Of a stretch of 64,000 nt of DNA, positions 27,260-64,000 are shown in pieces. The notes below the pieces were generated by a model. That model was not told where the DNA came from. It did not search any database and saw nothing but the letters and a program-made list of their open reading frames with translations. The DNA lies in the IMG/VR virus record IMGVR_UViG_3300032325_000464, positions 1 to 64,000 of that record. One strand, 5' to 3'. Position numbers and translations under genes: made by a program. Position 1 is the first letter of the stretch; each line of letters opens with the position of its first letter. Source of the DNA: a virus.

Positions 27260-28411
27260 TTATGAATCTGAGCTGTCTGAGTCAGCGAATGCAATTGCAT
27301 CCTCTTCTTCCCACTGAACGCCGAATCTTACGAATACGGTGTACTCAATGGTGTCCTTCTTTGGCTTGTACTCACGGTTTACTGTGATGTCGCGCTGGAA
27401 TCCCCAGATACGGTTCTGTGGGAATGTAAGGTCTACATATCCTGCAGGGAAATAAGGAACTTCCTGAACATCAACGCCTAGAACACGTGTTGTACGTGCT
27501 CCACCGAATGTCTGACCGACACCGTCAAGGTAGTCCTGACGGTTAGCCTGAGTTGATCCTGGAGTCATTCCTGCGAATGCCTCAGCAACAGCGTCAGCTA
27601 GGGTACCATTGTGCTTAACAATGCCCTGGAATGCATCAGTACCTGCGTAGAACTTAAGGTTGTTCTTAAGTGCGCGGTACTTACGAGGCATAGCCAAGAT
27701 AATGTTCTGCATAACATCTGGAGTCCAAGCGTTGTCAGTTACTGTAACAACTGACTCGTGTGCATCTCCAGTCTTTGCTCGGTTAACGAAACCCTGCAAG
27801 ATAGATAGGAATGCATCTGAACCTGTACCAGTACCGTTGATCGCTAGATCTTCGATGTCATTAGCAAAAGCGTTTGTCATCAAACGTACTAGGTGGTCTT
27901 CAAGTGCACCTCCTTCAATTCCATCTTCAAGTGCTTCAGCAGTTACTTCCCAGTCAAGACGAATCTTCTTGGTAGTAAGCTCAACCTTTGTAAACTGAGC
28001 TCCTGCGTTAGAGTAGTCTCCAACAGCCTGTGTGGCCGCACGGATAACACGCTCTCCGACATTAACCTTCTCAAGTTCCATGGTGTTGGCTCGCATTGTT
28101 ACTCTGCGTCCATCCTTGGCGAGAACTGTGGCATCCCACACGTAGTCAATAAAACGACGTGCTTGCTCTGGGCGTAGGATACCTGAACCTGCATCACCTG
28201 AAGGGTTAATAGCATTAGCCCCATTAGTATTGCCAAGGTAGGCATTGTCAATGTTTCCAAGAACACCAGCTGTGGTGTAGTTTCCTGGAATGTTCTGGCC
28301 AGCCTCTGACCCAGACGCAAATGATCCCTGGCCCTGATATAGACCTGGAGTAGTTCCGCCTAGCTCACCAGCCTCGCCTGGCTGATTTTTAATAATTTCT
28401 TGTTCCGACAT
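27260..28411 (-). CDS. Major capsid protein (HK97 fold)
   Basis: GILRPEQARRFID, EALEDGIEG, NDIEDLAING, REYKPKKD; AGGAGGTG RBS before MSEQ. Confidence 0.92.
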   Translation of the reverse strand: MSEQEIIKNQPGEAGELGGTTPGLYQGQGSFASGSEAGQNIPGNYTTAGVLGNIDNAYLGNTNGANAINPSGDAGSGILRPEQARRFIDYVWDATVLAKDGRRVTMRANTMELEKVNVGERVIRAATQAVGDYSNAGAQFTKVELTTKKIRLDWEVTAEALEDGIEGGALEDHLVRLMTNAFANDIEDLAINGTGTGSDAFLSILQGFVNRAKTGDAHESVVTVTDNAWTPDVMQNIILAMPRKYRALKNNLKFYAGTDAFQGIVKHNGTLADAVAEAFAGMTPGSTQANRQDYLDGVGQTFGGARTTRVLGVDVQEVPYFPAGYVDLTFPQNRIWGFQRDITVNREYKPKKDTIEYTVFVRFGVQWEEEDAIAFADSDSSDS

Positions 28412-48855: not shown

Positions 48856-49569
48856 CTAATTAACTGATATATATATTGATTTTATTTTCACTTCGGAATC
48901 AAGATCTGTCCTTATTTGTGGGACAATTCCTGCATTTTTATGTGCCTCTGAAAATATTGCCATGTTATGGGTTATTGACATTTCATAAGTATGCTGATAT
49001 TTTAAATTTGCACAAAATGTTGTGACCGAATCATCTAATCCAAAAAATTGAGATCTCATCCATACTTCTGTATTTGAACTAAAAGTTGTAATCTCAATAT
49101 CATAGGTTATCTGTACTTGAGCACCTACCTTTAGTCCTCTTGTATTTATTTTTCTGGTATCTTTAATGTAAAGACTTACTGAATCTTCTGGTAGAAAATC
49201 TTCGATAGATGCTTCTGAATCTACATAAAGATCAACCCAACCATCTACCCCCCTAGAAGCGCCTGCAGCGGTGGCTTTAGGCTTTTTATTTTTATAAAGT
49301 GCCCAGCCAACATTTTGATTATATTTTGGAAAATACGATTTACCATCTTTACCATCTTTTCCAGGAATCCCGCGCTCACCCCTAGGTCCAGTAATGCTTT
49401 CTCCAGGATCTCCATTTTTTCCAGGATCTCCCTTTGGTCCTATTGGACCTGGAGGGCCTTGAGGACCAGGAACAGCAAAAAATACTCCTTCTTGTGGTGT
49501 TTCGACGGATTGTTTTACTTTTGAGGCATACCCAGATGTGGGGAAATCGATGTTAGATGAAGTTGCCAT
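48856..49569 (-). CDS. Collagen-like virion protein
   Basis: GPQGPPGPIGPKGDPGKNGDPG. Confidence 0.75.
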   Translation of the reverse strand: MATSSNIDFPTSGYASKVKQSVETPQEGVFFAVPGPQGPPGPIGPKGDPGKNGDPGESITGPRGERGIPGKDGKDGKSYFPKYNQNVGWALYKNKKPKATAAGASRGVDGWVDLYVDSEASIEDFLPEDSVSLYIKDTRKINTRGLKVGAQVQITYDIEITTFSSNTEVWMRSQFFGLDDSVTTFCANLKYQHTYEMSITHNMAIFSEAHKNAGIVPQIRTDLDSEVKIKSIYISVN

Positions 49570-51835: not shown

Positions 51836-52040
51836 TTATCCACAGATTTTTTGTAGTTATTCACAGTTTTGTATTAGTTATCCACAGTTTTTTAATAGTT
51901 TTAAAAAATTTACACAATCGTAACAATTGATTTTATATATTTTGTTGCTTTTGGCTTTTTTATGTGTATAATATCTATATATATTAAATAATAAAAGATA
52001 TGTTAACTAGCTTTATAGCTTTATATATTATATATAATAA
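51836..52040. promoter_or_regulatory. oriC-like element: three DnaA boxes, an OmpR-type box and an AT-rich tract
   Basis: TTATCCACA 51836, TTATTCACA 51857, TTATCCACA 51878; TTTACA-N5-GTAACA 51909-51925; very AT-rich to 52040. Confidence 0.65.
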
Positions 52041-52062
52041 TCGGTTTTAAGTTTTCGCAGTT

Positions 52063-52347
52063 TTACTTCTGACGAGATACGTAGTTGATAAACATTTCTG
52101 TTAGATGATCTAGTTTAGAATCTAGCTTTTCGTGATATTCTTCACCTTTTATATTTTGATTCTTTAGACTAACTATATCTCGTTCTAGCCTATTAACCTG
52201 ATCTTTCATTGATGATCCACCGTTAGGCTTTAGCTCTTGAAGCACGTCTTTTAGATAGTGGCGTATCGCCCACCTGACAGAAACACCGATGATTGTTAAA
52301 ATTGATAGGGTTGTAAGGGTTAGGCCTAGCCAGTCTTGAATTGTCAT
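52063..52347 (-). CDS. Single-TM holin-like membrane protein
   Basis: N-terminal TM then ELKPNGGSSMKDQVNRLE, a motif common in actinophage lysis-region proteins. Confidence 0.6.
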   Translation of the reverse strand: MTIQDWLGLTLTTLSILTIIGVSVRWAIRHYLKDVLQELKPNGGSSMKDQVNRLERDIVSLKNQNIKGEEYHEKLDSKLDHLTEMFINYVSRQK

Positions 52348-52524
52348 GATAATACAATTATAAGTGATTTTTTTTATATATAGAATATAAAGTTCGCGGC
52401 TATAAGTTCAAAATTAAAAACGAAAAATTCGGCGGAATAAGAGATACTACACACATATCTACAAGTAATGAATGCAAGCATTCTCTATGTAGACAAGGTG
52501 AGAATTTTATGGTATTATTGCTGT

Positions 52525-52743
52525 ATGGCTTCTGGAGACGATAAGAAAAAAGATGTGGTGTTCTTTGACTTATTTGATCCGAGGCAGCCTAGAAGCGACA
52601 GAGAGCTAATAGAGGCACGTTTAGCAATTTGCAATGAATGTCCCTGGCTAGATAAAAGATTAACAAAATGTCGACAGTGTGGCTGCTTTATGAAACTAAA
52701 GTCTACATTAAAACAGGCCTCGTGCCCTTTAGAGAAATGGTGA
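52525..52743 (+). CDS. Cys-rich DUF6171-like protein (leaderless start MASG)
   Basis: RLAICNEC..CRQCGCFM..CPLEKW; TGGTATTAT 6 nt before ATG. Confidence 0.75.
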   Translation: MASGDDKKKDVVFFDLFDPRQPRSDRELIEARLAICNECPWLDKRLTKCRQCGCFMKLKSTLKQASCPLEKW

Positions 52744-52934
52744 GTATGGAAAAAGAAAAAGTAGTCGAAATGATGACTAATTTTGTAATTAATCTAAATA
52801 GAGAAGAAATGGCTAAAACTGGTCAACTAAATCAAACCCAGATAGATCAAATGATTCAGCAAGTAACAGAGTCAATCTATATGATTAACTCAAAAATATA
52901 TGATCTGCTAGATGATAATGGAATTATTTCATAA
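52737..52934 (+). CDS. Hypothetical protein
   Basis: Coupled ORF. Confidence 0.55.
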   Translation: MVSMEKEKVVEMMTNFVINLNREEMAKTGQLNQTQIDQMIQQVTESIYMINSKIYDLLDDNGIIS

Positions 52935-53116
52935 TGGTAGATAAGGTCCCATATGTAAAAGATTATCAGAATAAAGCAGTTCTGGAATCATATCTAGTAA
53001 AAGGTTATGGATCAAGAGAGATTGCTAAAGACTATCATGTATCATATAAGCTTGTTAATTTATGGTTGTTACAACATGGACTCATCAGACCAACGTCAGA
53101 GCTGGCTCTTCCGTAA
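52934..53116 (+). CDS. Small HTH DNA-binding protein
   Basis: SREIAKDYHVSYKLVNLWL..HG. Confidence 0.65.
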   Translation: MVDKVPYVKDYQNKAVLESYLVKGYGSREIAKDYHVSYKLVNLWLLQHGLIRPTSELALP

Positions 53117-53137
53117 TACCGTTGAAAATTAAAAACT

Positions 53138-53233
53138 ATGTTTAATAAGATATTATATATTGCAGGAGCTGTTATTGTTCTATACCTATGGATAGGCACA
53201 TTCCATAGTTTTGTTAACTATTTAGCATTTTAG
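53138..53233 (+). CDS. Small membrane peptide
   Basis: MFNKILYIAGAVIVLYLWIGTFHSFVNYLAF. Confidence 0.4.
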   Translation: MFNKILYIAGAVIVLYLWIGTFHSFVNYLAF

Positions 53234-53354
53234 TTGTTTTTGCATTTGCAATTATCGCATTTGCATTCAGACTTAATTTCATTAGCAACATCTGGTATAG
53301 ACATTATTTGCTTCCAGGGTTATTCTTGCCACAAGTGCAGTTACCATCACACAT
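53230..53354 (-). CDS. Two coupled Cys-rich micropeptides
   Basis: MCDGNCTCGKNNPGSK (53304-53354) and MSIPDVANEIKSECKCDNCKCKNN (53230-53304); GAAAGGA RBS and TATAAT promoter. Confidence 0.55.
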
Positions 53355-53602
53355 AATAGATCCTTTCGTTAGTTCTATTATACATCAGAGCTGATTCGTA
53401 TACCGCCAAAATCTGAAAAATTTTAAATTTACCAAAATCTGAATATTTTGTAGTTATGTATGATACATGATCGGTATAAGAAACACAAACTTTTTTAGTG
53501 CGCACACATTTACGGGCTTGTTTTTATTTTATCCTTGCGCTACCCGTACGACCCTTTTGTTTAGCAGTAGTGCCACCCTTTTCTATGCGACTACCGCCAG
53601 CC

Positions 53603-54168
53603 CTAACTTTTTTGCTTACGCAATTCACCACACTTGACTAGGTCGTGTCCCTTGTTCCATTGCTTACGGTCAAGGTAATAACTCAGAACAGTAGTCTGTT
53701 CGTATTCGCAATTTGAACACTTAGTTTTTCTCCACATTGTTGTTGTTGTCATTAGTTATTTTCCTTTTCTGTTAGTGCGATTGTTAGTGAGGTGATACCG
53801 CTAATGGCTTGGTCAAATTCTTCCCAAGTGTCGAATGTTAGGACTACCATTTTCTAATTGACCCCTTTGCTTTTGCTAATGATGTGAGCATTGACAATTC
53901 ACGCTCAAACTCTGATGTGATGTTCCAATCACTATCTTCTGCTATCTTGAGATAAGCCTCTAGAGTTTTCTCTAGTTGGGCTAATGACATCTTCATAAAA
54001 TCTGATGAAGTAGCGTATCTGTTCATACTAATTACACTCTCCATAAGCCTCGAAGCAGTATTCGCAACATTCCTGCTGGAATTCTTCTACATACACTCTT
54101 GGAGTGTAGTTGTCGCAGATTTCACACATTGCTACATCTGCTACATTTATCTTTAGTAAGTTCATCAT
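53603..54168 (-). CDS. Leftward early operon of four small ORFs
   Basis: 54028-54168 (CxxC..CCxxC), 53844-54026, 53752-53850, 53603-53752; AAGGAG RBS; tight coupling. Confidence 0.65.
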
Positions 54169-54443
54169 TCTGAACTCCTTTCTTTCTAACTACTTATACA
54201 CTATCACCACCTACCGACATTTATGCTCATTTTACTAAACATTTTTATACAAACTTTTGCCCTCTTTTTTGTAGGGTATCTACAAGAACGACACGCCCGA
54301 GTGAGCGCGGGCCTGTGGATAACTATGTGTATAACTCTTTATAAGAACGTTATAAAAAACCCCCTAATTCCTGGCGTGTCGCTTGACAAATGTCGTAGGC
54401 CTATGATAGATTTTTACTAACAACAAAAGAAAAGGATAATCAA

Positions 54444-54858
54444 ATGACAGTAGAAGTAATGTTTCACGATGGTTCAGCAATCTACCCTAGCTATGACCCA
54501 GAACACCGCAAAACTATTTTAGAATTCTACGCTAACCTTTTTGATAAGGGTGAAATTATGTCTTGGAAGGTAATCTAATGATGAGTCGCAAAGACTATGA
54601 GGCAATTGCCGAAATAATCAAAACATACAATCTACAACTTCCAGAAATTACTTTGGAAAGTATTGTGAATGACTTTTGTGAAATGCTAACAGAAGATAAC
54701 CCACGGTTTGACGCTAACCGTTTTCGTGTTGCTGCTATGGAGGTAAACTAATGATGTTTTACAACGGATTCAATCTAATGATTGACCTAATACTAATTGC
54801 TGTTGTGTATGTAATTGCTCACGGCATTGGATACCGCAAAAATAAAACACCATTCTAA
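54444..54858 (+). CDS. Early module 1: three small ORFs
   Basis: 54444-54578, 54578-54751 (MSRKDY..DNPRFD.NRF), 54751-54858 (TM peptide ending KTPF); TAATG coupling. Confidence 0.7.
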
Positions 54859-55020
54859 CGGCGTGTTGATTTGACAGATCCCTCGAAAGAGGGCGCGGGC
54901 CTGTGGATAACCCTGTGAACAACTCCGTTATGAACTTGTTATGAAACACCCCAAAAGTATGCCAGAAATGTCAGTGGTTTGTGATAGGGTTTTTAGTAAG
55001 CCAAAAGAAAGGAATACCAA

Positions 55021-55589
55021 ATGGATAAGATGTGTGTTTACTGCGAGAGTGTTTTCACTAACGATACTATTGTTTGCCACAACTGTAATGAGTATGACGG
55101 AATGATGCCGTTGGAAAAAGCGGTTGACTATCTCAACCTTGACCCTAATGACTTTTACTAAAATGTCAGACCCCTATACTAAGTTTATAGTAATCAGAAA
55201 GGATAACAGATGAAGCAATCAGTAATCACAGACACCACCATAAGCACTATTGTTGCTAAGGCAGAAGATGTCATTGACAGACCTCTAACCTACATGGAGA
55301 ACGCACTTATAGAGTATGTAGTTGACCAGATTCGTTTAGGGTTGGTAGAGAAATGACAATCGAAGAACTAGAAACTTTGATTTACCAAATTGACCTAATG
55401 CTAACTGAAAGTGTTAGCCAACTATTCACAACACCAGAGGAGAAATAAATGGAACTAGGTTTGATTCTTATTTTTATTGCTGTTGGCGTTTCAATTTTTG
55501 TTGGAACTTCGGTTGCCACAATTTTATTTTTGCTACAAGAAAATAACAGACTTGGCGAAGAGCTAGAAAAAAACGAAACCCCATTCTAA
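55021..55589 (+). CDS. Early module 2: four small ORFs
   Basis: 55021-55161 (CxxC..CxxC), 55210-55356, 55353-55448, 55449-55589 (TM peptide ending ETPF); AAAGGA RBSs. Confidence 0.7.
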
Positions 55590-55713
55590 ACGACACGCCC
55601 GAGAGGGCGCGGCCCATCGCAGGATAATAAATAACCTTAAGAATATTTTAAGATCTCCCCCAAAATGTCCTAGGTTAGTGATAAGATAATCTTATTAACG
55701 AAAGGAAACCCCA

Positions 55714-56235
55714 ATGACTAACCATGTAGAGATTTATTCAGAGATTGCAAGTCGTGCAACATTCGGCCAGGTAGAGCAGGCAACTAAGTGGTACCTTGAC
55801 GCAGAGACAGTAGCACGTGAAGTTGCAGCCAACCTAGGCGTGACACTTGAAGTAGGTGCAACTATTGTTTCAGCATTCAGCCCTCGTGAGCGCTGGGCAC
55901 GTAATGTTTCTAATGCTATCAAGTTTTCACTAGGCGAACATGTTACCGCTCTAGGCAATAACATTCGCATGGCTAACGCTGCATTTGACTTAGGCTTCAA
56001 GGCTTTGAATGGTCAGAAGACTAATGCATTTGCTAAGGCTATTGCAGGCAATGAAGAATCAGTTGTGATTGACGTATGGATGTTGCGAGCAGTTGGTATT
56101 GAGAAGAAGACACCTAACCAGTCTGGCTATAACGAACTTGCTAAAGCAGTGACTACTGTTGCAGTTAAGCATGGCATGACACCACGTGCAATGCAAGCCC
56201 TAATCTGGATTGTTGTTAGAGGAAGTGGAGAGTGA
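55714..56235 (+). CDS. Alpha-helical DNA-glycosylase-like (DUF7178-like) protein
   Basis: WY..A, SAFSPRERW..N, KT.AF, VIDVWMLRA, QALIW. Confidence 0.6.
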   Translation: MTNHVEIYSEIASRATFGQVEQATKWYLDAETVAREVAANLGVTLEVGATIVSAFSPRERWARNVSNAIKFSLGEHVTALGNNIRMANAAFDLGFKALNGQKTNAFAKAIAGNEESVVIDVWMLRAVGIEKKTPNQSGYNELAKAVTTVAVKHGMTPRAMQALIWIVVRGSGE

Positions 56236-56272
56236 TTGACAACAAAACCCTAGTATGGGATAATGGTAAGTA

Positions 56273-56407
56273 GTGGAGTATTATATTTGGTTGCCAGTAT
56301 TTGTTTTGTTGTTTTTACTTTTGCTTTTTGCCCTGCTTCCAATTTTTGTTGGCATAATTTTCTTTCTAGAATATTTGGCAGAAATATTTAGCAAAATAAA
56401 AAGCTGA
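56273..56407 (+). CDS. Very hydrophobic membrane peptide
   Basis: MEYYIWLPVFVLLFLLLLFALLPIFVGIIFFLEYLAEIFSKIKS after a TTGACA-N17-GATAAT promoter. Confidence 0.5.
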   Translation: MEYYIWLPVFVLLFLLLLFALLPIFVGIIFFLEYLAEIFSKIKS

Positions 56408-56526
56408 CAGACACTCACCGATCTGGAGGGCGCGGCACTTTTTCTATCAGAAGTCAATTACGTTATGCATTAAAAATCTCCTAGAATATCCCCCAAAATG
56501 TCTGATGGTCATGCTAAGATAAATCT

Positions 56527-56682
56527 ATGAAGCTAGGAAAAGGTAATGAGGCAAGACGTAAGGCAGAAAGCCAAGCGCTATTCTTTACTATGCTCAAAGC
56601 CCCTCACCTAGTAGCAACCCCCAAGAAATACAAAGGAAGCCGTCAGTCTAACAAGGCTAAGGCAATAAAGGAAAGTGAATAA
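56527..56682 (+). CDS. Small basic leaderless protein
   Basis: MKLGKGNEARRK...PKKYKGSRQSNK; ATG 6 nt after TAAGAT. Confidence 0.6.
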   Translation: MKLGKGNEARRKAESQALFFTMLKAPHLVATPKKYKGSRQSNKAKAIKESE

Positions 56683-56822
56683 TGTACAGTTATATCTGTC
56701 AGGATTGTAATCGCTTTATCAACGGAGTTGAGACAATTTACTCCTATGCCCTCAAAAATGTCTGTGGCAGATGTTATGCTATTCAGGCAGGACACCCCTC
56801 AACAAGAAAGCTGGTAAAGTAA
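56682..56822 (+). CDS. Small zinc-finger protein
   Basis: CQDC..CGRC; coupled both sides. Confidence 0.55.
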   Translation: MYSYICQDCNRFINGVETIYSYALKNVCGRCYAIQAGHPSTRKLVK

Positions 56823-57016
56823 TGCCAAAGTATAATGTAGCAGTTCAGTTATCAGGTAATGATGGAAACGCATTCTCAGTAATGGGAGCCGTAAAGTCTG
56901 CCCTCAAAAAAGCTGGAGCAAGTAGAGAAGAACTTGACGAATACGTATCAGACTCAATGTCTGGCGACTATGACAACTTATTGCGTGTAGCAATGGAATG
57001 GGTAAAGGTAAAGTAA
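56822..57016 (+). CDS. Small protein (DGNAF..SGDYDNLL motif)
   Basis: Motif recognised from phage/ICE hypothetical proteins; coupled start. Confidence 0.7.
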   Translation: MPKYNVAVQLSGNDGNAFSVMGAVKSALKKAGASREELDEYVSDSMSGDYDNLLRVAMEWVKVK

Positions 57017-57297
57017 TGGGAATGATGACAGCAATGGACTTGGCAGGTAGCGAAGTCTCATTAGAGCAACAACTATCAATTCACTTTAGTAGCAACTGTT
57101 ATCCACCAATTCCACAACAGATGATTCCAACAGCTATTGCAGCGATTGACGCTTGTTGGGAAGAAGACTATGACTTGATGATACCGTTGCCAGATGGAGT
57201 ATCTTTCAGAGGACAGACTGAAGTGTCTGCTAGAAATGTTGTTGAGTCTTACAGGCTTGACGCCTGGTTGGTTGATTACTACGAAGATGAAGAGTAG
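57016..57297 (+). CDS. Acidic hypothetical protein (H..NCYPPIP)
   Basis: Coupled ORF. Confidence 0.7.
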   Translation: MGMMTAMDLAGSEVSLEQQLSIHFSSNCYPPIPQQMIPTAIAAIDACWEEDYDLMIPLPDGVSFRGQTEVSARNVVESYRLDAWLVDYYEDEE

Positions 57298-57507
57298 CTA
57301 ACGCTGCCCCAGAAATGGGGCGCGGCCCAGGATCAGTCAAAAGTCAAACCGACACGCCCTTAAGAAGATAACAATTTATTCCCCAAATCGTTATAATTAT
57401 TTTGCCTTTGGGGGTAGATAAATGTCGGTGGTTAGTGGTAAAATAAACCTATCAACAAAAGTTGGTAATAAAAACAAAACAGTCCCTCTGGGGCGGAACG
57501 GAAGCAA

Positions 57508-57660
57508 ATGTCAAACGCAACTCTAACTGTTGGCTCACAGTTCACCACTCTAAAGTCTGGAGTATCAGGCACAATTCAGGAAATCGTAAACAACAAGAAC
57601 GGCACTCAGCGTGTTCGCCTTGATGTAAACGGACAGCCACGCTGGACTACTGTAAAGTAA
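57508..57660 (+). CDS. Small beta-barrel (SH3-like) protein
   Basis: MSNATLTVGSQFTTLKSGVSGTIQEI...RWTTVK. Confidence 0.6.
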   Translation: MSNATLTVGSQFTTLKSGVSGTIQEIVNNKNGTQRVRLDVNGQPRWTTVK

Positions 57661-57808
57661 TAAACTAATTATTGTTGTGGCGTTAGACTACATAAAAGGG
57701 TGAATCAGAGTCTAGTTGAGAACCCCTGCCACTAACAATAAATGTCAGACCCTAATGATAAAATAATGAAGTAAACAAAACCCCACAAGTAAAGGAAGCA
57801 ATAAAATT

Positions 57809-58258
57809 ATGGCTAGAACTATGTCAGTAAAAATCCCTGTATCCGCACTAATCTCAGACATTGAGAAGTCTATTGCCAAGATTGACGAAGCAATTACAAA
57901 CTACGCATCAGACCGAAAGAAGTATGAGGTAGATGTTGCCGCATACAAAGAAAGTGTTGCTGAGTTTGTTTCTAATTTCATTAGCAAGAACGCATCAAGC
58001 ATTGGCTATGACTACGAAAGTCTAATCCGTATCAACCACGCTTACAATGGCAAGGTAGAGTTGATACTTGACAAGGACTCCATTGAGGGTTTCCCTGAGA
58101 AGCCAGAAGAGCCAAGCAAGCCAAATGAGAAAGAGTGGTTTGGTCGTGAACACCAGACACGCAAACAAATCCTAGAGCGTAATCTCAAGGTGCTGCGTAT
58201 GACTACACAGGAAGAAGTTTCTGCTAGTTCATACTCCTCAGTAATGGAACTAATCTAA
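57809..58258 (+). CDS. Hypothetical protein
   Basis: AAAGGA RBS; own TGTC promoter. Confidence 0.75.
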   Translation: MARTMSVKIPVSALISDIEKSIAKIDEAITNYASDRKKYEVDVAAYKESVAEFVSNFISKNASSIGYDYESLIRINHAYNGKVELILDKDSIEGFPEKPEEPSKPNEKEWFGREHQTRKQILERNLKVLRMTTQEEVSASSYSSVMELI

Positions 58259-58506
58259 ATAATCAAACAACCTGAGCAAGTTGTAAAACTGCTTCCCGAA
58301 TTGGGGTAGCGACTAGACGGGTAAAATAATTTCGCTCCACATCCCCCTCACAAAAGCTGAAGATCGCAAGATCACAAATACTGAGAGGGGGAAAAGGTGG
58401 GCGCGGCCCCCATAACGAATTGGTAACAAGTTTAAGAAACACTATTAAGAGCCCTTGTAAATGTCAGTGGTTGGCTGTAAAATATAGCTATAACGAAAGG
58501 AACCCC

Positions 58507-59309
58507 ATGGACGAGCAAGCAGAAGAAATCAAACAGGACCTAGCCGACTACTATGCTAACCCACAAGAATACACACTCTTTGACTTTGAGGAAATCTTTC
58601 AGGACAGGGACCCATTTGAATTCCTATAATGTCGTAGGGTCCTGGTAGAATTCAAACAAATAACGAAAGGAAAATAATGAGCTTACTAAATAACATTGGA
58701 TACGTTTCCTATGACGGAAACTATGGAGCTGAAGCGGACCTACTAGTTTTCGACAGCAATGACCTCACTCTACAACAGTGGGAAACCCTAGGTGAGATAA
58801 ACGACAACTCTAGGTATGAGTATGTTGAAGCTATTTTTGCAGGTAAAGACCTATCTGAGTGGGAGGGCTAATGCTACGTACAGATGAGACTTACTGGAAA
58901 ATCAAAGAGTACACAGATGAGGCCAAGGGTATAGCTTGGGACACATGTCACAAAATTTATATTCTTATGGATGACAATCAGGTAGCGCTAATGCGTGAGT
59001 ATGAATATGACCCAATCATCACGTCAGAACAAATAAACCCAGCCGAAATGGCAACGGTTGCAGCTGTTTGGTTTGAAAAGTCTTGTGCACTAAGATTTGT
59101 AAATGCAGTCTACAGTGATACTTCAATTGGACACGAGGGTTTTGTCAACGTCATTGCGCAGTTTGAAGGCGATGAAGAAGAAGACGATGAATATGATGAG
59201 GATGAAGATGAGTAATATTTGGGAGCCAGCTCCAGGTGGAGTCTGGGATAGCTTCTTCCGTGAAGCAGGCTTTGACAATGGAGATAGCGAAGACGACGAA
59301 GACCTGTAG
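58507..59309 (+). CDS. Cluster of four highly acidic small proteins
   Basis: 58507-58629, 58677-58871, 58871-59215 (WDTCHKIY), 59208-59309. Confidence 0.7.
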
Positions 59310-59501
59310 TGCATTCCCTTACTTCCTTTCTGGAATGTACTACCGTCCTGGCCATGACGTAAATCTGGCCACCTTTTGTGCGCGGCCCACTTAACAGATC
59401 CATAACAACTTTAAGAAGAATTAAGATGTTTCCCTAAAACCCCTTGTAAATGTCGGTGGGTAGCTGTAAAATGATACTACCCGAAAAGAAAGGAACCCCC
59501 A

Positions 59502-60005
59502 ATGGGAACCAGAAACCTAACAGTAGTAAAGAATAAAGCAGGGAAAAACAAGATTGCTCAATACGGACAATGGGACGGCTACCCAAGTTATTCAGGTGTT
59601 CAAGCCCTAGCATTTCTAAGAGACGAAGGCAACCAAGCCCTGCTACAAGCAAAGCTAGACCTTGTCCAGTTTGTTGGTGATGAGGAAGTAGATACCCTGT
59701 ATAAGCAGTATGAAACTACCGATTGGGAGAATAAAGATTTCCTAAACGCATACCCTGGACTTCACAGAGATACTGGTGTTGGTATCCTATCAGTAGTTGC
59801 TAACGCTGTTGCTCCTGTCAAGACTGTTGATAACACAGAGTTTGCTAAAGATGAATTGTTTTGTGAAGGTATCTTTGAGGTAGACTTCAAGACTAACAAG
59901 TTTATTACTGTCTATGCTGACAAGAAGGTTGAGTTTGACCTTGCCACTCTACCAACAGATGAAGAATACCTAGCCCAGTGGGAAGTGCAGCAAGTTGCTT
60001 CATAA
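59502..60005 (+). CDS. Phage protein with MGTR...QY.QWDGYP motif
   Basis: Motif recognition; RBS. Confidence 0.75.
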   Translation: MGTRNLTVVKNKAGKNKIAQYGQWDGYPSYSGVQALAFLRDEGNQALLQAKLDLVQFVGDEEVDTLYKQYETTDWENKDFLNAYPGLHRDTGVGILSVVANAVAPVKTVDNTEFAKDELFCEGIFEVDFKTNKFITVYADKKVEFDLATLPTDEEYLAQWEVQQVAS

Positions 60006-60602
60006 TCTAGATACCAAATACCTAACAGGGGACATCGCAAAGGATGTTCAGTTTATAAAAGATAACCTTAGTATTGATGACGAAGAGTTCTTTAGAAGGG
60101 CTATGGCTAACATAATGTCTGAGGGTAATGCTAGAATTGACTTACTTACTGGAGAGGAACTAAACAAACTATGAAGAAAACTTGGCAAGTAGAGTATAGT
60201 GCTACCTATTGGGTAGAAGCAGAAACAGAAGATGAAGCAATTGAATTGGCTATTGAATCACACGCTGACCTACCAGACGGTAGTTGGGAAGCAATGATTG
60301 ACCCCTATGATAGCAACAACTTCAATACGCTAGGAGAAAAGTGATTATCGAATGCCCCAACCATGAGGGCAACTTTGACTGTACACCATTTTGCAATTTG
60401 TGTGAAGGAGAACAAGAGTATGTCAGTGAGTGAACTAGAACAAATCGGGTATGAAGAAGGAATGAAGGATACCTATGCTTACATTATCAATACTATACGT
60501 AAGGCAATAGAGAATCCTTCACTTGATGTCATACCGTCAAAAATGGCACTACAAGTCCTGTTGGCAAGTTTAGAAGCTGACAGGGAAGAGAGCACGGTCT
60601 AA
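59995..60602 (+). CDS. Four small coupled ORFs
   Basis: 59995-60174, 60171-60344 (VEAETEDEA), 60341-60433 (C-P-H/C..CxxC), 60420-60602. Confidence 0.6.
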
Positions 60603-60752
60603 GCTCCCCGAAAGGGGCGCGGCCCCAATATAACAGATCTATAACAACTTTAAGAACCTTAAGAATGTTTCCCCAGATGGCTTGACATTGTCGGTGGGTC
60701 ATGGGATAATAGTCTTACTAAACATTCACCCCTAAAAGAAAGTTGAACACAA

Positions 60753-61766
60753 ATGGCTCATGACCTAGAATCCGCAAACGGCCAGACTGCTTTTGCTTCA
60801 TTGCGACAGCCAGCTTGGCATGGTCTTGGAACTGTTTTCCAAGACGAGGTAGACACATCAGAAATGTTGTCTCTGGCTCACCTAAACGATTGGAACGTCC
60901 GTCTTGAAGATGTAGAGACTCCAGAGGGTTTCAACAGCGACAAGTCTTATTCATTCGTGACAAGAACTAACCCATTCGACAGAAACACTAACGACATTCT
61001 TGGTGTTGTTGGTGAACGCTATGTCCCTCTTCAGAATGAGGACTTATTTTCATTCGGAGACAACCTGCTAGACGGCGGAGGTCGTTGGGAAACTGCTGGC
61101 TCTATCAAGGGTGGGCGTGTTGTCTTTGGCTCTATCGCATTGGATAACTCAATTACCCTAGACCCAAATGGCATTGCTGATAAGATTGATAACTATCTTC
61201 TAATCAACACTAGCCACGACGGCTCTATTGCGATTCAGGCTTCTATCACACCTGTTCGTGTTGTTTGTGCCAACACTCTAAACCTTGCTCTATCTTCATT
61301 CAAGGGCAAGAAAGATGTCAAGCAAACTTTCAAGATTCGCCACACACAGACTGCCGAAGGTAAAATTGCGGTTGCTCGTGAGGCTCTTGGACTTGCTCAC
61401 AAATACATTGACGAGTTCTCAACTATGGCTAACGAAATGATTCAGACTGAAATTACTAAGGCTCAGTTTGATAAGATTGTTGAACTTGCCTACCCTGCCC
61501 CTGCTAAGGACGCCAAGGGTTCACAGAAAAAGTATGACAGCAAAATTGATTTGCTTCAGTCTATTTATGTTGGCGATTTCAATAACACCATTAGCGGAAC
61601 TGCTTGGGGTGCTTTCAATGCTCTAACCGAAAGACTAGACTGGTATCGCAATTCCCGAGGCGGAAAGAACGAAAGCATTCTTGCTTCTGCTTCTGGCTTT
61701 GACCCAATGATAAACGCTGAGAAGAATCGTTTGATGAAAGTTGTTCGCCAAGCCGTAATGGCATAA
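60753..61766 (+). CDS. DUF932 phage/plasmid-like protein
   Basis: AWHGLG, LGVVG.RY.PLQN, ETAGS..GG, SHDGS, TPVRVVCANTL, IRHT, GTAWGAFNA. Confidence 0.88.
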   Translation: MAHDLESANGQTAFASLRQPAWHGLGTVFQDEVDTSEMLSLAHLNDWNVRLEDVETPEGFNSDKSYSFVTRTNPFDRNTNDILGVVGERYVPLQNEDLFSFGDNLLDGGGRWETAGSIKGGRVVFGSIALDNSITLDPNGIADKIDNYLLINTSHDGSIAIQASITPVRVVCANTLNLALSSFKGKKDVKQTFKIRHTQTAEGKIAVAREALGLAHKYIDEFSTMANEMIQTEITKAQFDKIVELAYPAPAKDAKGSQKKYDSKIDLLQSIYVGDFNNTISGTAWGAFNALTERLDWYRNSRGGKNESILASASGFDPMINAEKNRLMKVVRQAVMA

Positions 61767-61929
61767 GCGACACGCAGACCTCCTGGCTTGACAGCTGGGA
61801 GGATCTGTGGCGCGGCCCCCTTATCACTAATAAGATATTAACTTATAAAAAACCTATTAAGAAGTCCTTGACTTTTTCCCCAAAACGTGAGAGAATATAT
61901 TTATCAAACCATTCAACCCTAGGAGATAA

Positions 61930-62436
61930 ATGCCTTATTTCAAAGTACAAAGAGAATATACTAACTGGGAACAGATTACAGTTGAAGCTGATTCAAAAGA
62001 GCATGCAGAAGAGCTTGCAGAAGATGATGAGATATGGGATAATGCCTATGATGTAAACTCATATAACTACACTGGAGATACATGGGTAGGAGAAGCAGAT
62101 GAGTAAAAAGCACACGCATTACTATACTTATGGAGCCTGCACATGGTGCGGTAAGAAAATAAATAAAGGATTGGGCGTAGACCTATACAAGGGAAAGAGA
62201 GTCTAATGCAGATTTATGCTGACAAGAAGCCTAGCGTAAAAGATACTACTTGGACCAGGATCTATCACTACAACACCGTCCAGGTTATGGAGTCCGATCG
62301 CTACTACGACTTTTATAAGTTAGTTATTGATGGCCAGAGACCTAAGTATTTCTTTGGTGAGGCAGCGTGGATGGATTGCCAGAGAGCAGCTGTTGACAAA
62401 GTAGGCCTTTCAGGCTATAATATATTTAGAAGATAA
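61930..62436 (+). CDS. Three small ORFs
   Basis: 61930-62106 (VEADSKEHA), 62099-62206 (H.H..CxxC), 62206-62436; TTGACT-N17-GAGAAT promoter. Confidence 0.6.
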
Positions 62437-62457
62437 CCCTAAAAGAAAGAACCCCAA

Positions 62458-62976
62458 ATGCACGTATTACAATACATAGCAGTACAATCAGATGACCAAG
62501 ACATGGCCTTTCGTACAGTCAAAGACACATTAGAATCAGAGCTGGGTGGTATTGAATCTACGACTAACTCTTGGTTTGATTGGTTTGTAGCAGGTGGTGG
62601 TAGATTTGTAGAGGGCGACCCATATAAAGAATCTACTAATAATATAATCTCATATGATGAAGACCCTAAGACGTTTCTCAAACAGGTTGAGGTTTCTATT
62701 GAATCTCGTATGGATGAGTTCAGGGCCTATCGCAAACAGTTTGAGGAAAAGAATGTTGACCTCAATGATAAGTTAGATAACTATAAAGGTATCATGAACT
62801 ATGATTTTGAGCTGTACCCTTTGAAAAAGATGATTGATATGATTCAGGGTACATGGGATTTCAATTCCTACTTCTATGACATGCACCACGCCAGTACTAA
62901 CCCTGAACACATGTATAAGTCTATTGACACAGGCAACAAGAACTGGTATGCTGTACCTGTAGACTTTCACTTCTAA
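62458..62976 (+). CDS. Phage protein (WFDWFV.GGR..VDFH motif)
   Basis: Motif recognition. Confidence 0.75.
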   Translation: MHVLQYIAVQSDDQDMAFRTVKDTLESELGGIESTTNSWFDWFVAGGGRFVEGDPYKESTNNIISYDEDPKTFLKQVEVSIESRMDEFRAYRKQFEEKNVDLNDKLDNYKGIMNYDFELYPLKKMIDMIQGTWDFNSYFYDMHHASTNPEHMYKSIDTGNKNWYAVPVDFHF

Positions 62977-62985
62977 GGAGACCAA

Positions 62986-63381
62986 ATGACTAACTATGTA
63001 TCACTAACTTGGAAAGAATGGCAAGAGCGCTTCAAGCCTATCAAGAATCATTTTGCTAAGAACGACCCAGACCTAGAGATGTTTGAGACTTATGGCGAAG
63101 AGGTAGATTTTGTTATCTCTAAAGCCGAGGAAAATAAAGTTTGGACTTGGGGAGATGGAGACTTTGCTAGCTACATTAGCAATGGCTATCACTATGTAAA
63201 TAGGATTGGCTATTATGTTTGTGAGGTTCCTTATGACGAGGATACCGAATACGAAATAATCATAAGTACCGAAGAAGAGTGTAAGTGCTATCTTGAAGAC
63301 GGCTATGACGACGGAGAGTATGGACGCTCAGACTGTGAAGAATGTGAGGGTAGTGGGTATGTCACAAGATACAATGATTAG
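62986..63381 (+). CDS. Phage protein (FETYG..GYHYVNRIGY) with C-terminal zinc ribbon
   Basis: AAGGAG RBS; CEECEGSG. Confidence 0.75.
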   Translation: MTNYVSLTWKEWQERFKPIKNHFAKNDPDLEMFETYGEEVDFVISKAEENKVWTWGDGDFASYISNGYHYVNRIGYYVCEVPYDEDTEYEIIISTEEECKCYLEDGYDDGEYGRSDCEECEGSGYVTRYND

Positions 63382-63712
63382 AAACAAGAACAAGGATAAG
63401 ACTGAGATTATCTATGACCTGAACATCTATCAGCTGGAGGACCTAGACGCCGATGGTGAGTATCGACACATGGGGCCATGGTACATTCATGTCTACGAAT
63501 ACGACGGTAGAACAACTGAGGAAGTTACAGCTCCTATAGAATTAACTGAAGATGAGTATAACAGTCTTATTAGGGATGATTCATACTATGATGAGCTAGA
63601 CGTCTGGTATGGCCTGCAAGGGTTTATCTTTGAAAAGTGGGATGTGCTCAGCGATCGTCTTAAGTATGCATTCGAATGCCTGCCCAAGTACAAGGAAGAT
63701 GTTTTGTTCTAA
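63374..63712 (+). CDS. Acidic hypothetical protein
   Basis: Overlapping start MIRNK. Confidence 0.6.
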   Translation: MIRNKNKDKTEIIYDLNIYQLEDLDADGEYRHMGPWYIHVYEYDGRTTEEVTAPIELTEDEYNSLIRDDSYYDELDVWYGLQGFIFEKWDVLSDRLKYAFECLPKYKEDVLF

Positions 63713-63769
63713 CCCTTGTGTTATCCCCCCATTTTTGATACAATAGAAGATTGTAAGTGAGTAGGAGTT

Positions 63770-63964
63770 ATGCCTAGAAAAGAATCAGTAGAGCAGAAAA
63801 TAGTAGCAAAAGTGTCCAACCTGATAAATGATTTGACCGTGGACTTAGAGCAGACAGGTATTTACTTTGGAAGAACAAATGGAACGACCTATCGTAGACT
63901 AATGACTATTGCCGAATCAGCAAAGTATGAGAGAGAAGAAGAAAAAGATGACTACACCTATTGA
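63770..63964 (+). CDS. Hypothetical protein
   Basis: AGGAG RBS; TGATACAAT promoter. Confidence 0.65.
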   Translation: MPRKESVEQKIVAKVSNLINDLTVDLEQTGIYFGRTNGTTYRRLMTIAESAKYEREEEKDDYTY

Positions 63965-64000
63965 GAATAAAACAGCAATCCTTGCGGACTTGTTTCTGAA

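Follow-up and report, generated by a model that had tools for sequence, protein, structure and literature searches.

What does a short, exact, GC-rich word do at the end of one early gene cassette after another? The question is raised by IMG/VR virus record IMGVR_UViG_3300032325_000464, a contig of 77,957 bp with 39% GC that is about 69% complete. Our window is the first 64 kb of this record (positions 1 to 64,000), and the word is GCGCGG. It is repeated in an early block of small plus-strand genes that runs from 52.4 to 65 kb, with minus-strand genes on either side (structural genes on the left; glycosyltransferase, HSP20 and tRNA genes on the right). On the plus strand of this block GCGCGG occurs at 54305, 54893, 55607, 56430, 57320, 58401, 59380, 60617 and 61810. 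Counting over the whole record adds a tenth co-oriented copy at 64405, beyond the window. All ten words are intergenic and lie between plus-strand open reading frames (ORFs). The cassettes follow one order: gene or genes, 3' stem-loop, word, host-factor-like boxes and then the next host-type promoter.

A preliminary description of the locus had listed the nine plus-strand sites in the window, and our recount returned every one of its coordinates. It had placed the sites in intergenic DNA on one strand, between the end of a module and the next promoter, which holds for all nine and also for the tenth. It had further noticed a single plus-strand copy elsewhere, in the capsid gene. That copy is at 27672, within the minus-strand capsid ORF, and the only other GCGCGG in the window is on the minus strand at 49370. 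The k-mer count on both strands, which the same description had proposed, shows enrichment: the window holds 11 copies, dinucleotide shuffles hold 3.4 ± 1.8, and none of 100 shuffles held at least 11. The longer core GGCGCGG has eight copies in the record, all eight of them inside the array, and the conserved core as a whole is (G)GGCGCGG(C/G)CC, an asymmetric, GC-rich word of 9–11 bp. Within this genome the word is uniform and restricted to the early block. It is a real, non-random element that marks boundaries in the early region, as had been thought from the start.

Is the word a general feature of such viruses? Relatives were fetched with the DUF932 protein that is encoded in the array (60753–61766), which gave 39 viral loci at 66–96% identity. 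GCGCGG is found on neither strand of these 39 loci, and it is also missing from 34 whole related contigs (1.64 Mb), for which a dinucleotide model predicts about 80 copies. Each relative repeats a GC-rich 7- to 10-mer of its own, at the same position in the linker and in the early block only. Examples of these private words are GGGGCGGCC; GGTCGGCC / GGCCGACC; GGTCGGGC, with 16 copies; GGTGCCCC; GTGCGCCCC; GAGCGCC; GGCGAGCC; GGCGCACC; GTCGAC; TGCGCA; GCCTAGGC; and GCATCGG. In complete relatives the copies all fall into one block of 8–11 kb (16 of 16 in a genome of 92.9 kb, eight of eight in genomes of 111 and 117 kb). At the orthologous linker 3' of DUF932 the hairpin and the flanks are kept, and the word alone is replaced. 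The nearest relative in this region (L149) has the word GGCGCACC, one small step away from the GGCGCGGCC of our genome.

The same linker design is found in cultured phages. The BE-cluster phages of Streptomyces are distant kin (their capsid protein is about 45% identical, their DUF932 protein 54%), and they carry the design in early genes at the genome ends. The BE1 genome paper describes those ends as terminal repeats of roughly 11 kb (PMC5764925). Yaboi repeats CCGCCCCGG 22 times and Bmoc repeats it 16 times, and Navo and NootNoot have the word CCCGGACA, written (CCG)CCCCGGACA, 11 times. In these phages the word stands directly 3' of a hairpin with a UUCG loop and 5' of a promoter. Yaboi and Navo share their isolation host strain but not their extended word, which is weak evidence that the determinant of the word is borne by the phage.

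CGCG occurs twice in the 34 related contigs against 898 expected copies, CCGG twice against 1,507, and GCGC is at 0.19 of expectation. With CGCG almost completely lost, the word of our genome could not exist in these relatives. Our genome has no CCGG at all (about 67 copies are expected over the whole 78 kb), and it alone tolerates CGCG: it has 20 copies, of which ten lie in the early block, all ten inside words. The depletion of CGCG and CCGG points to strong restriction avoidance, and to a different host or some protection for this lineage. Outside the array, genomes do not avoid their own word in particular, since the sub-6-mers of the own word (observed/expected 0.48) are not more depleted than those of foreign words (0.53).

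How can a word be uniform within genomes, change between genomes that share the linker boxes around it, and be the only part of a conserved linker to be replaced? Neutral concerted evolution does not fit, since homogenisation within a genome stops short of the neighbouring hairpins. The three properties together argue for a reader that acts in trans and has the specificity of the lineage, or else for a requirement that all sites in a genome be identical.

Whether such a reader would act on DNA or RNA can be judged from the anatomy of the linkers across the family, which we counted for 215 sites in 29 arrays. The 40 nt 5' of the word fold at −12.3 kcal/mol, compared with −5.1 kcal/mol for random positions (p = 1e-39), and in the DUF932 linker compensatory changes in 8 of 11 pairs preserve the pairing of the hairpin. 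A G run stands 5' of the word and a C run 3' of it; the main hairpin is separate and variable. The word itself is found in either orientation in the same linker context, whether one compares the sites of a single genome or orthologous sites in close relatives. Around it there is a promoter-like frame. TTGAC ends 15–17 nt 5' of the word at 76 of the 215 sites, with a peak at 16 nt, GTCAA starts 15–17 nt 3' of it at 43 sites, and both arms are in register at 22. The result, often seen in relatives, is a dyad, TTGAC-N16-word-N16-GTCAA, with a register of 16 ± 1 bp and the word at its centre. In the form TTGACA-N15-word, the word occupies the extended −10/−10 position of a promoter, seen from either side, and at this position it is GC-rich and hard to melt. 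Our genome has one arm at each of several sites, always at N15: upstream of the word at 54893 and 61810, and downstream at 56430 and 57320. We considered the word as part of an ordinary sigma70-type promoter and rejected this, since TTGACA-N15 supplies a −35 element and the spacing, but a GC-rich word replaces the −10 element. A directional −10 element was rejected as well, because the orientation of the word is independent of which TTGAC arm is present.

Free orientation and the register of the dyad suggest recognition of the word as duplex DNA, and they count against an RNA element, a strand-polar signal and a directional recombination core. In general terms, then, it is probable that the word is a private recognition site in duplex DNA. 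By contrast, we find it scarcely credible that hairpin and word act together in the transcript, as a nut-like antitermination signal, a processing site or a protector of the 3' end. GNRA loops, a hairpin with compensatory changes and the position of the word on the coding strand of our genome would all suit such an element. However, in relatives the word appears on either strand in equivalent linkers, from which different RNAs would be made, and where canonical terminators precede the word, it lies past the point of release. An Rfam scan matched tRNAs only, and nothing at hairpin plus word. A complementary RNA guide was also considered and rejected: the complement CCGCGC is found once in the contig, inside a tail-fibre gene.

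The second possibility that suffers from free orientation is a polar signal set by the host, such as a Chi- or KOPS-like site or an injection-pacing site in the first-entering DNA. This idea came with the preliminary description, which had stressed that the sites are co-oriented and that their spacing widens along the array. Co-orientation holds in our genome, where ten of ten words are on the plus strand, but it is not a trait of the family, as most relatives are mixed; in our genome it is largely a consequence of all ten words lying in one block of plus-strand genes. The gaps had been given correctly and the trend is real, with a Spearman rho of 0.97 including the tenth site (gap of 2595). 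A widening trend is seen in 17 of 19 related arrays with a mean rho of 0.48, although these arrays share synteny and are not independent; cultured Yaboi has no such trend (rho 0.03). The spacing widens because the cassettes grow in length, from one or two tiny genes to 1–2.6 kb (late in the array, for example, comes the 1-kb DUF932 gene), and there is no evidence that the gradient is a device in itself. A polar signal would fit a short, GC-rich, asymmetric word that is co-oriented in this genome, and it would fit a block that lies within the terminal repeat of cultured relatives (PMC5764925). It does not fit a word that is strictly intergenic, changes between relatives, differs between phages isolated on one host strain, takes either orientation and keeps a fixed register with promoter-like arms, and the widening follows gene length. 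We regard a host-determined polar signal as extremely improbable.

Our preferred reading is that the word is a putative protein-binding site, private to each lineage, that marks the boundaries of early cassettes. We would give this reading a probability of roughly 45%. The reader would be a sequence-specific trans factor whose specificity shifts between lineages and which is most likely encoded by the phage. We picture a phage-encoded protein that would dock on the word, in a dummy promoter immediately 3' of a hairpin that lacks a U tract. The docked protein would insulate one cassette from the next, and it could shut off early transcription or hold RNA polymerase at the boundary. As to mode, simple occupancy by a DNA-binding protein, with the word as an operator- or stoperator-like boundary element, is a tentative proposal that we think has a little less than an even chance. 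A more elaborate version is rather unlikely. It proposes a phage-borne addressing system with the words as its centres of specificity, in which a private protein docks at the −10 position of two-faced dummy promoters (TTGACA-N15-word-N15-TGTCAA) wherever two cassettes of the first-expressed DNA meet, and there captures or blocks RNA polymerase or nicks the DNA. With nicking, single-stranded DNA (ssDNA) would be fed to the neighbouring PafBC-type promoters. If the addressing version is true, a switch of the word would isolate lineages from each other, much as immunity groups do.

Several observations weigh against a private binding protein. A site of 8–9 bp is short for a classical operator. 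The TTGACA arm is present at only about one third of the sites, and at two of ten in our genome. The words of the Streptomyces phages share a CCCGG core, so the reader might still be a protein of the host. Finally, the search for a reader gene came back empty. For a co-variation screen we clustered 3,034 ORFs from 35 genomes and compared the identity among genomes with the same word with that among genomes with different words; no convincing reader gene emerged. The highest scores went to a GDP-mannose dehydratase and to small acidic proteins, and not one of these is credible as a reader. DUF932, the only universal early protein, was rejected because it is too conserved: genomes that differ in their word show just scattered differences in it. 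Family scans of five genomes found no sigma70 region 4, no ParB_N, no C5 or N4/N6 methylase and no HNH_3. HNH is present in two of the five genomes scanned and absent from a complete relative with 16 sites (G001); among ten large ORFs scanned in the latter there is no RNA polymerase. The conserved early proteins have no function that sequence searches of Pfam, PHROGs and PDB could assign. Most of them (52000–66000, plus strand) are small and very acidic, with a pI of about 4.1–4.6, which would suit a DNA-mimic or host-takeover role.

The preferred reading has a parallel in the stoperators of cluster A mycobacteriophages, which are bound by the repressor gp71 in L5. Like our word, stoperators are short and asymmetric, occur many times over in an actinobacteriophage and lie in short intergenic stretches; their consensus shifts between phages together with a phage-encoded reader, and they act on duplex DNA to stop transcription (PMC6550527, PMC9283540). 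They differ in that they are 13 bp long, are spread over the whole genome in one orientation with respect to transcription, belong to temperate phages and have a known repressor. Our word is 8–11 bp, is confined to the early block and is mixed in orientation in relatives, with no repressor gene found. Neither the co-variation screen nor the family scans yielded a candidate for a stoperator-type cognate repressor, in a contig that is about 69% complete.

Could the linkers be explained more simply, by termination? A hairpin adjoins or overlaps the word at every site in our genome, with GAAA, GAGA or TTGACA loops, and it is weak at 56430. Each transcription unit closes with a stable, GNRA-looped GC hairpin, which resembles an intrinsic terminator, but an exact GC-rich word follows where a U tract would be expected. 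There is no T run at any of the hairpins, and a terminator scan calls none of the sites, so that we rejected intrinsic terminators. The preliminary description had already noted GC hairpins with GNRA loops that lack U tracts, and had not taken them for ordinary terminators; on both points it agrees with the missing T runs and with the scan. In some relatives the word does stand 3' of a canonical hairpin with a T run, or of the 3' end of a tRNA. The sequence of the downstream duplex affects termination efficiency. Hence the word might be a GC clamp acting in cis, a stretch of duplex past the hairpin that is hard to melt, slows RNA polymerase and strengthens U-poor terminators; its uniformity would then come from concerted evolution of repeated linkers, and no reader would be needed. 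It is consistent with this that the word always adjoins the 3' side of a hairpin or tRNA, and that it comes directly after hairpin-plus-T-run terminators in one relative (L140) and in the Streptomyces phages. But a clamp would need GC content and not one exact word, and the neighbouring hairpins of a genome have not been homogenised, while at orthologous sites the flanks are kept and the word alone is replaced. The register with the TTGAC arms also stays unexplained, even where a separate canonical terminator precedes. We therefore consider a GC clamp very unlikely.

A different idea is suggested by the word GCGCGG itself. The consensus of the major nicks in phage T5 is R/GCGCRGG (Glukhov 2012, PMC3517423), which is nearly the word of our genome: 54305 and 54893 match it at 8 of 8 positions, and the other eight words at 7 of 8. 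The words could thus be programmed nick or cut sites, at which a lineage-specific phage nickase cuts just one of the two strands, in the manner of T5, tf and phiKMV-like phages. Such nicks might provide single-stranded DNA near the adjacent PafBC-type promoters, and a promoter, often with a TGTC(A/G)GTG-N8-TAnnnT box, does lie 75–120 nt downstream of every word. Like our word, the nick sites of T5/BF23, tf and the phiKMV-like phages are short consensus sequences, repeated several to 14 times, private to groups of phages and found on one strand (PMC3517423, PMC10644984), and ten of ten of our words are on one strand. What makes this distinctly unlikely is the behaviour of the family. The words of the relatives are unlike the T5 consensus, and a family with about 15 GC-rich words is likely to contain one that matches it by chance. 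Known nick sites are spread over the genome and occur strictly on one strand (PMC3517423), whereas the word is confined to early linkers and occurs in both orientations in most relatives. Nicking would leave the fixed register with the inverted TTGAC arms unexplained, and HNH is missing from the complete relative that carries 16 sites.

The closest published analogue of the linkers as a whole is found elsewhere, in the promoter-early stem-loops (PeSLs) of the T4-type phages RB49 and phi1, for which recombination between elements has been demonstrated (Arbiol et al. 2010, PMC2839356). The preliminary description had named such anchors for cassette shuffling as one of its alternatives. In both systems the early region is hyperplastic and contains small ORFans, a terminator-like stem-loop and a strong early promoter of host type are repeated between its genes, and cassettes are present in some strains and absent from others. 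Our linkers likewise join a stem-loop and a sigma70-type early promoter in one repeated intergenic element, the next host-type promoter being 75–120 nt downstream of every word. The stem-loop of a PeSL is often GGGG...CCCC, and its authors speculated on a protein target (PMC2839356); over the 215 sites our word, too, lies between a G run and a C run, although the main hairpin is separate and variable. The differences concern the word. Here the GC core is a separate, exact word beside a variable hairpin, it is private to lineages and free in orientation, and it is in register with inverted −35-like arms. The host is an actinobacterium and the virus a siphovirus, and the mini-circles and the recombination belong to PeSLs.

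If the analogy is taken literally, the words would be the crossover cores of PeSL-like linkers, at which cassettes are deleted, inserted and exchanged. Exchange would need identical cores, and this would keep the word uniform within a genome. Several observations would suit such shuffling. With a terminator stem-loop, a G-run/C-run motif and an early promoter set among small ORFans, the architecture is that of PeSLs (PMC2839356), gene content is strongly mosaic between relatives, and the relatives encode RecA, alongside Pol III alpha and RNR. In addition, one metagenome contig of the source study has 54305 joined to 54900, so that exactly one cassette (54305–54893) is missing, and the linkers on either side of the missing cassette share 19 nt of identity, GCGCGGGCCTGTGGATAAC. 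The breakpoints, however, do not fall where this explanation puts them. Homology between relatives stops at about −50 and resumes at +30 to +130, and in comparisons with the 34 relatives BLAST high-scoring segment pairs (HSPs) tend to end at gene ends and promoters rather than at the word. The comparison of gene gain and loss in relatives that had been suggested as a check thus speaks against sharp breakpoints at the motif. Homologous exchange needs more than a core of 8–9 bp. If a site-specific core were directional, its mixed orientation would lead to inverted cassettes, yet all early genes are co-oriented, and no recombinase was identified. Of the suggested PeSL-like anchors, the analogue and the one cassette-lacking contig stand; the mixed orientation and the breakpoints count against them, and we think it unlikely that the words are recombination anchors. 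By analogy the design is nevertheless closest to published PeSL linkers. The word may best be described as a putative fast-changing DNA address between early cassettes.

The nine sites in the window differ in how hairpin, word and arms are combined. At 54305 (54295..54313, plus strand, as for all sites and promoters below) the hairpin GCCCG-N8-CGGGC overlaps the word, A-GCGCGG-GCC, and two DnaA-box-like repeats of the TGTGGATAA type follow immediately 3'. At 54893 (54871..54901) TTGACA (54871–54876), N15 and the word GGCGCGGGC are followed by DnaA-box-like repeats, and the hairpin CCCTC-GAAA-GAGGG (54880–54893) lies between TTGACA and the word. The site at 55607 (55594..55615) has the word GGCGCGGCC overlapped by the hairpin CGCCC-GAGA-GGGCG. 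The weak hairpin at 56430 (56418..56457) is accompanied by the word GGCGCGGCA (56429–56437) and by a GTCAA arm (56453–56457) 15 nt 3' of it, and at 57320 (57302..57347) the hairpin GCCCCA-GAAA-TGGGGC comes with GGCGCGGCC (57319–57327) and again a GTCAA arm 15 nt 3' of the word. At 58401 (58399..58409) GGCGCGGCC lies within the mini-palindrome GGGC-GCG-GCCC, which GGGGG...CCCCC brackets. A long imperfect hairpin (TGGCCA...TGGCCA) precedes the word T-GCGCGG-CC at 59380 (59337..59388), and the hairpin CCCC-GAAA-GGGG precedes GGCGCGGCC at 60617 (60596..60625). The last site in the window, 61810 (61767..61818), has a long hairpin 3' of the DUF932 gene, whose loop carries TTGACA (61788–61793), followed by N15 and GGCGCGGCC.

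Promoters that follow the words have the following forms. After 54305 there is TTGACA-18-TAGATT with a TGTCG box in the spacer (54383..54412). The promoters after 58401 (58455..58483) and 59380 (59444..59472) are both TTGTAA-17-TAAAAT, with the spacers TGTCAGTG-N8 and TGTCGGTG-N8, respectively. After 60617 comes TTGACA-17-GATAAT with the spacer TGTCGGTG (60682..60710), and after 61810 TTGACT-17-GAGAAT (61868..61896). The motif TGTC(A/G)GTG-N8-TAnnnT is seen in early promoter spacers at 54967, 57421, 58460, 59449 and 60689, mostly together with a TTGACA-like −35 element. We take this layout to be the geometry of actinobacterial PafBC (RecA-NDp) promoters. Past the tenth word there is a TTGACA-N17-TACAAT promoter, and for about 250 nt 3' of it no ORF is called (contig 64485–64736; L162:2485–2736). 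This stretch may encode a small RNA; it has no match in Rfam.

The linkers carry further motifs. Tandem DnaA-box-like repeats at 54314–54336 and 54902–54925 (TGTGGATAAC ... TGTGTATAAC / TGTGAACAAC) begin right after the word, and in relatives such boxes start 1–4 nt 3' of the word at 17 sites. Paired TTAAGAA / TTAAGA boxes, about 10–13 nt apart, are found between word and promoter at 55637, 57360, 58432, 59411, 60650, 60659 and 61857; relatives have TTACGA. These pairs look like the binding site of a tandem or dimeric factor. A scan of viral contigs for GCGCGGCC-N12-42-TTAAGAA gave merely scattered single matches in unrelated contigs. A second repeated motif, CGACACGC(C), occurs at 54289, 55591, 57350 and 61768 on the plus strand and at 54381 on the minus strand. 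It is common to nearly all relatives, in both orientations, and unlike the word it is not private. At the site 3' of DUF932 its ACACG pairs with CTGTG just 5' of the word, which extends the hairpin.

A few observations concern the surroundings of the array and its relatives. The first gene of the array (52468–52743, DUF6171) encodes eight cysteines, and five minus-strand tRNA genes (Arg, Lys, Leu, Ile and Met) lie beyond the window at 74005–75609 of the contig. The 127-bp terminal repeats of the 'complete' relatives look like assembly overlaps. In assemblies of four runs of the source study the 52000–64000 region is spread over many short contigs with joints at the level of cassettes and with replaced linkers, which points to strains that live side by side and have different early cassettes.

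No part of a phage genome is less well understood than its early region. In a whole group of actinobacterial phages, which extends from uncultured ones of lakes and soils to the cultured BE-cluster phages of Streptomyces, early cassettes are punctuated by an exact, lineage-specific, GC-rich word. This pattern calls for a DNA reader that can be rapidly re-targeted, or for an equivalent constraint, neither of them described so far. It gives access to the question of how such phages insulate, time or reshuffle the genes with which they take over the host. Because the design is kept in cultured relatives such as Yaboi, with its 22 copies of CCGCCCCGG, the question is directly testable at the bench.

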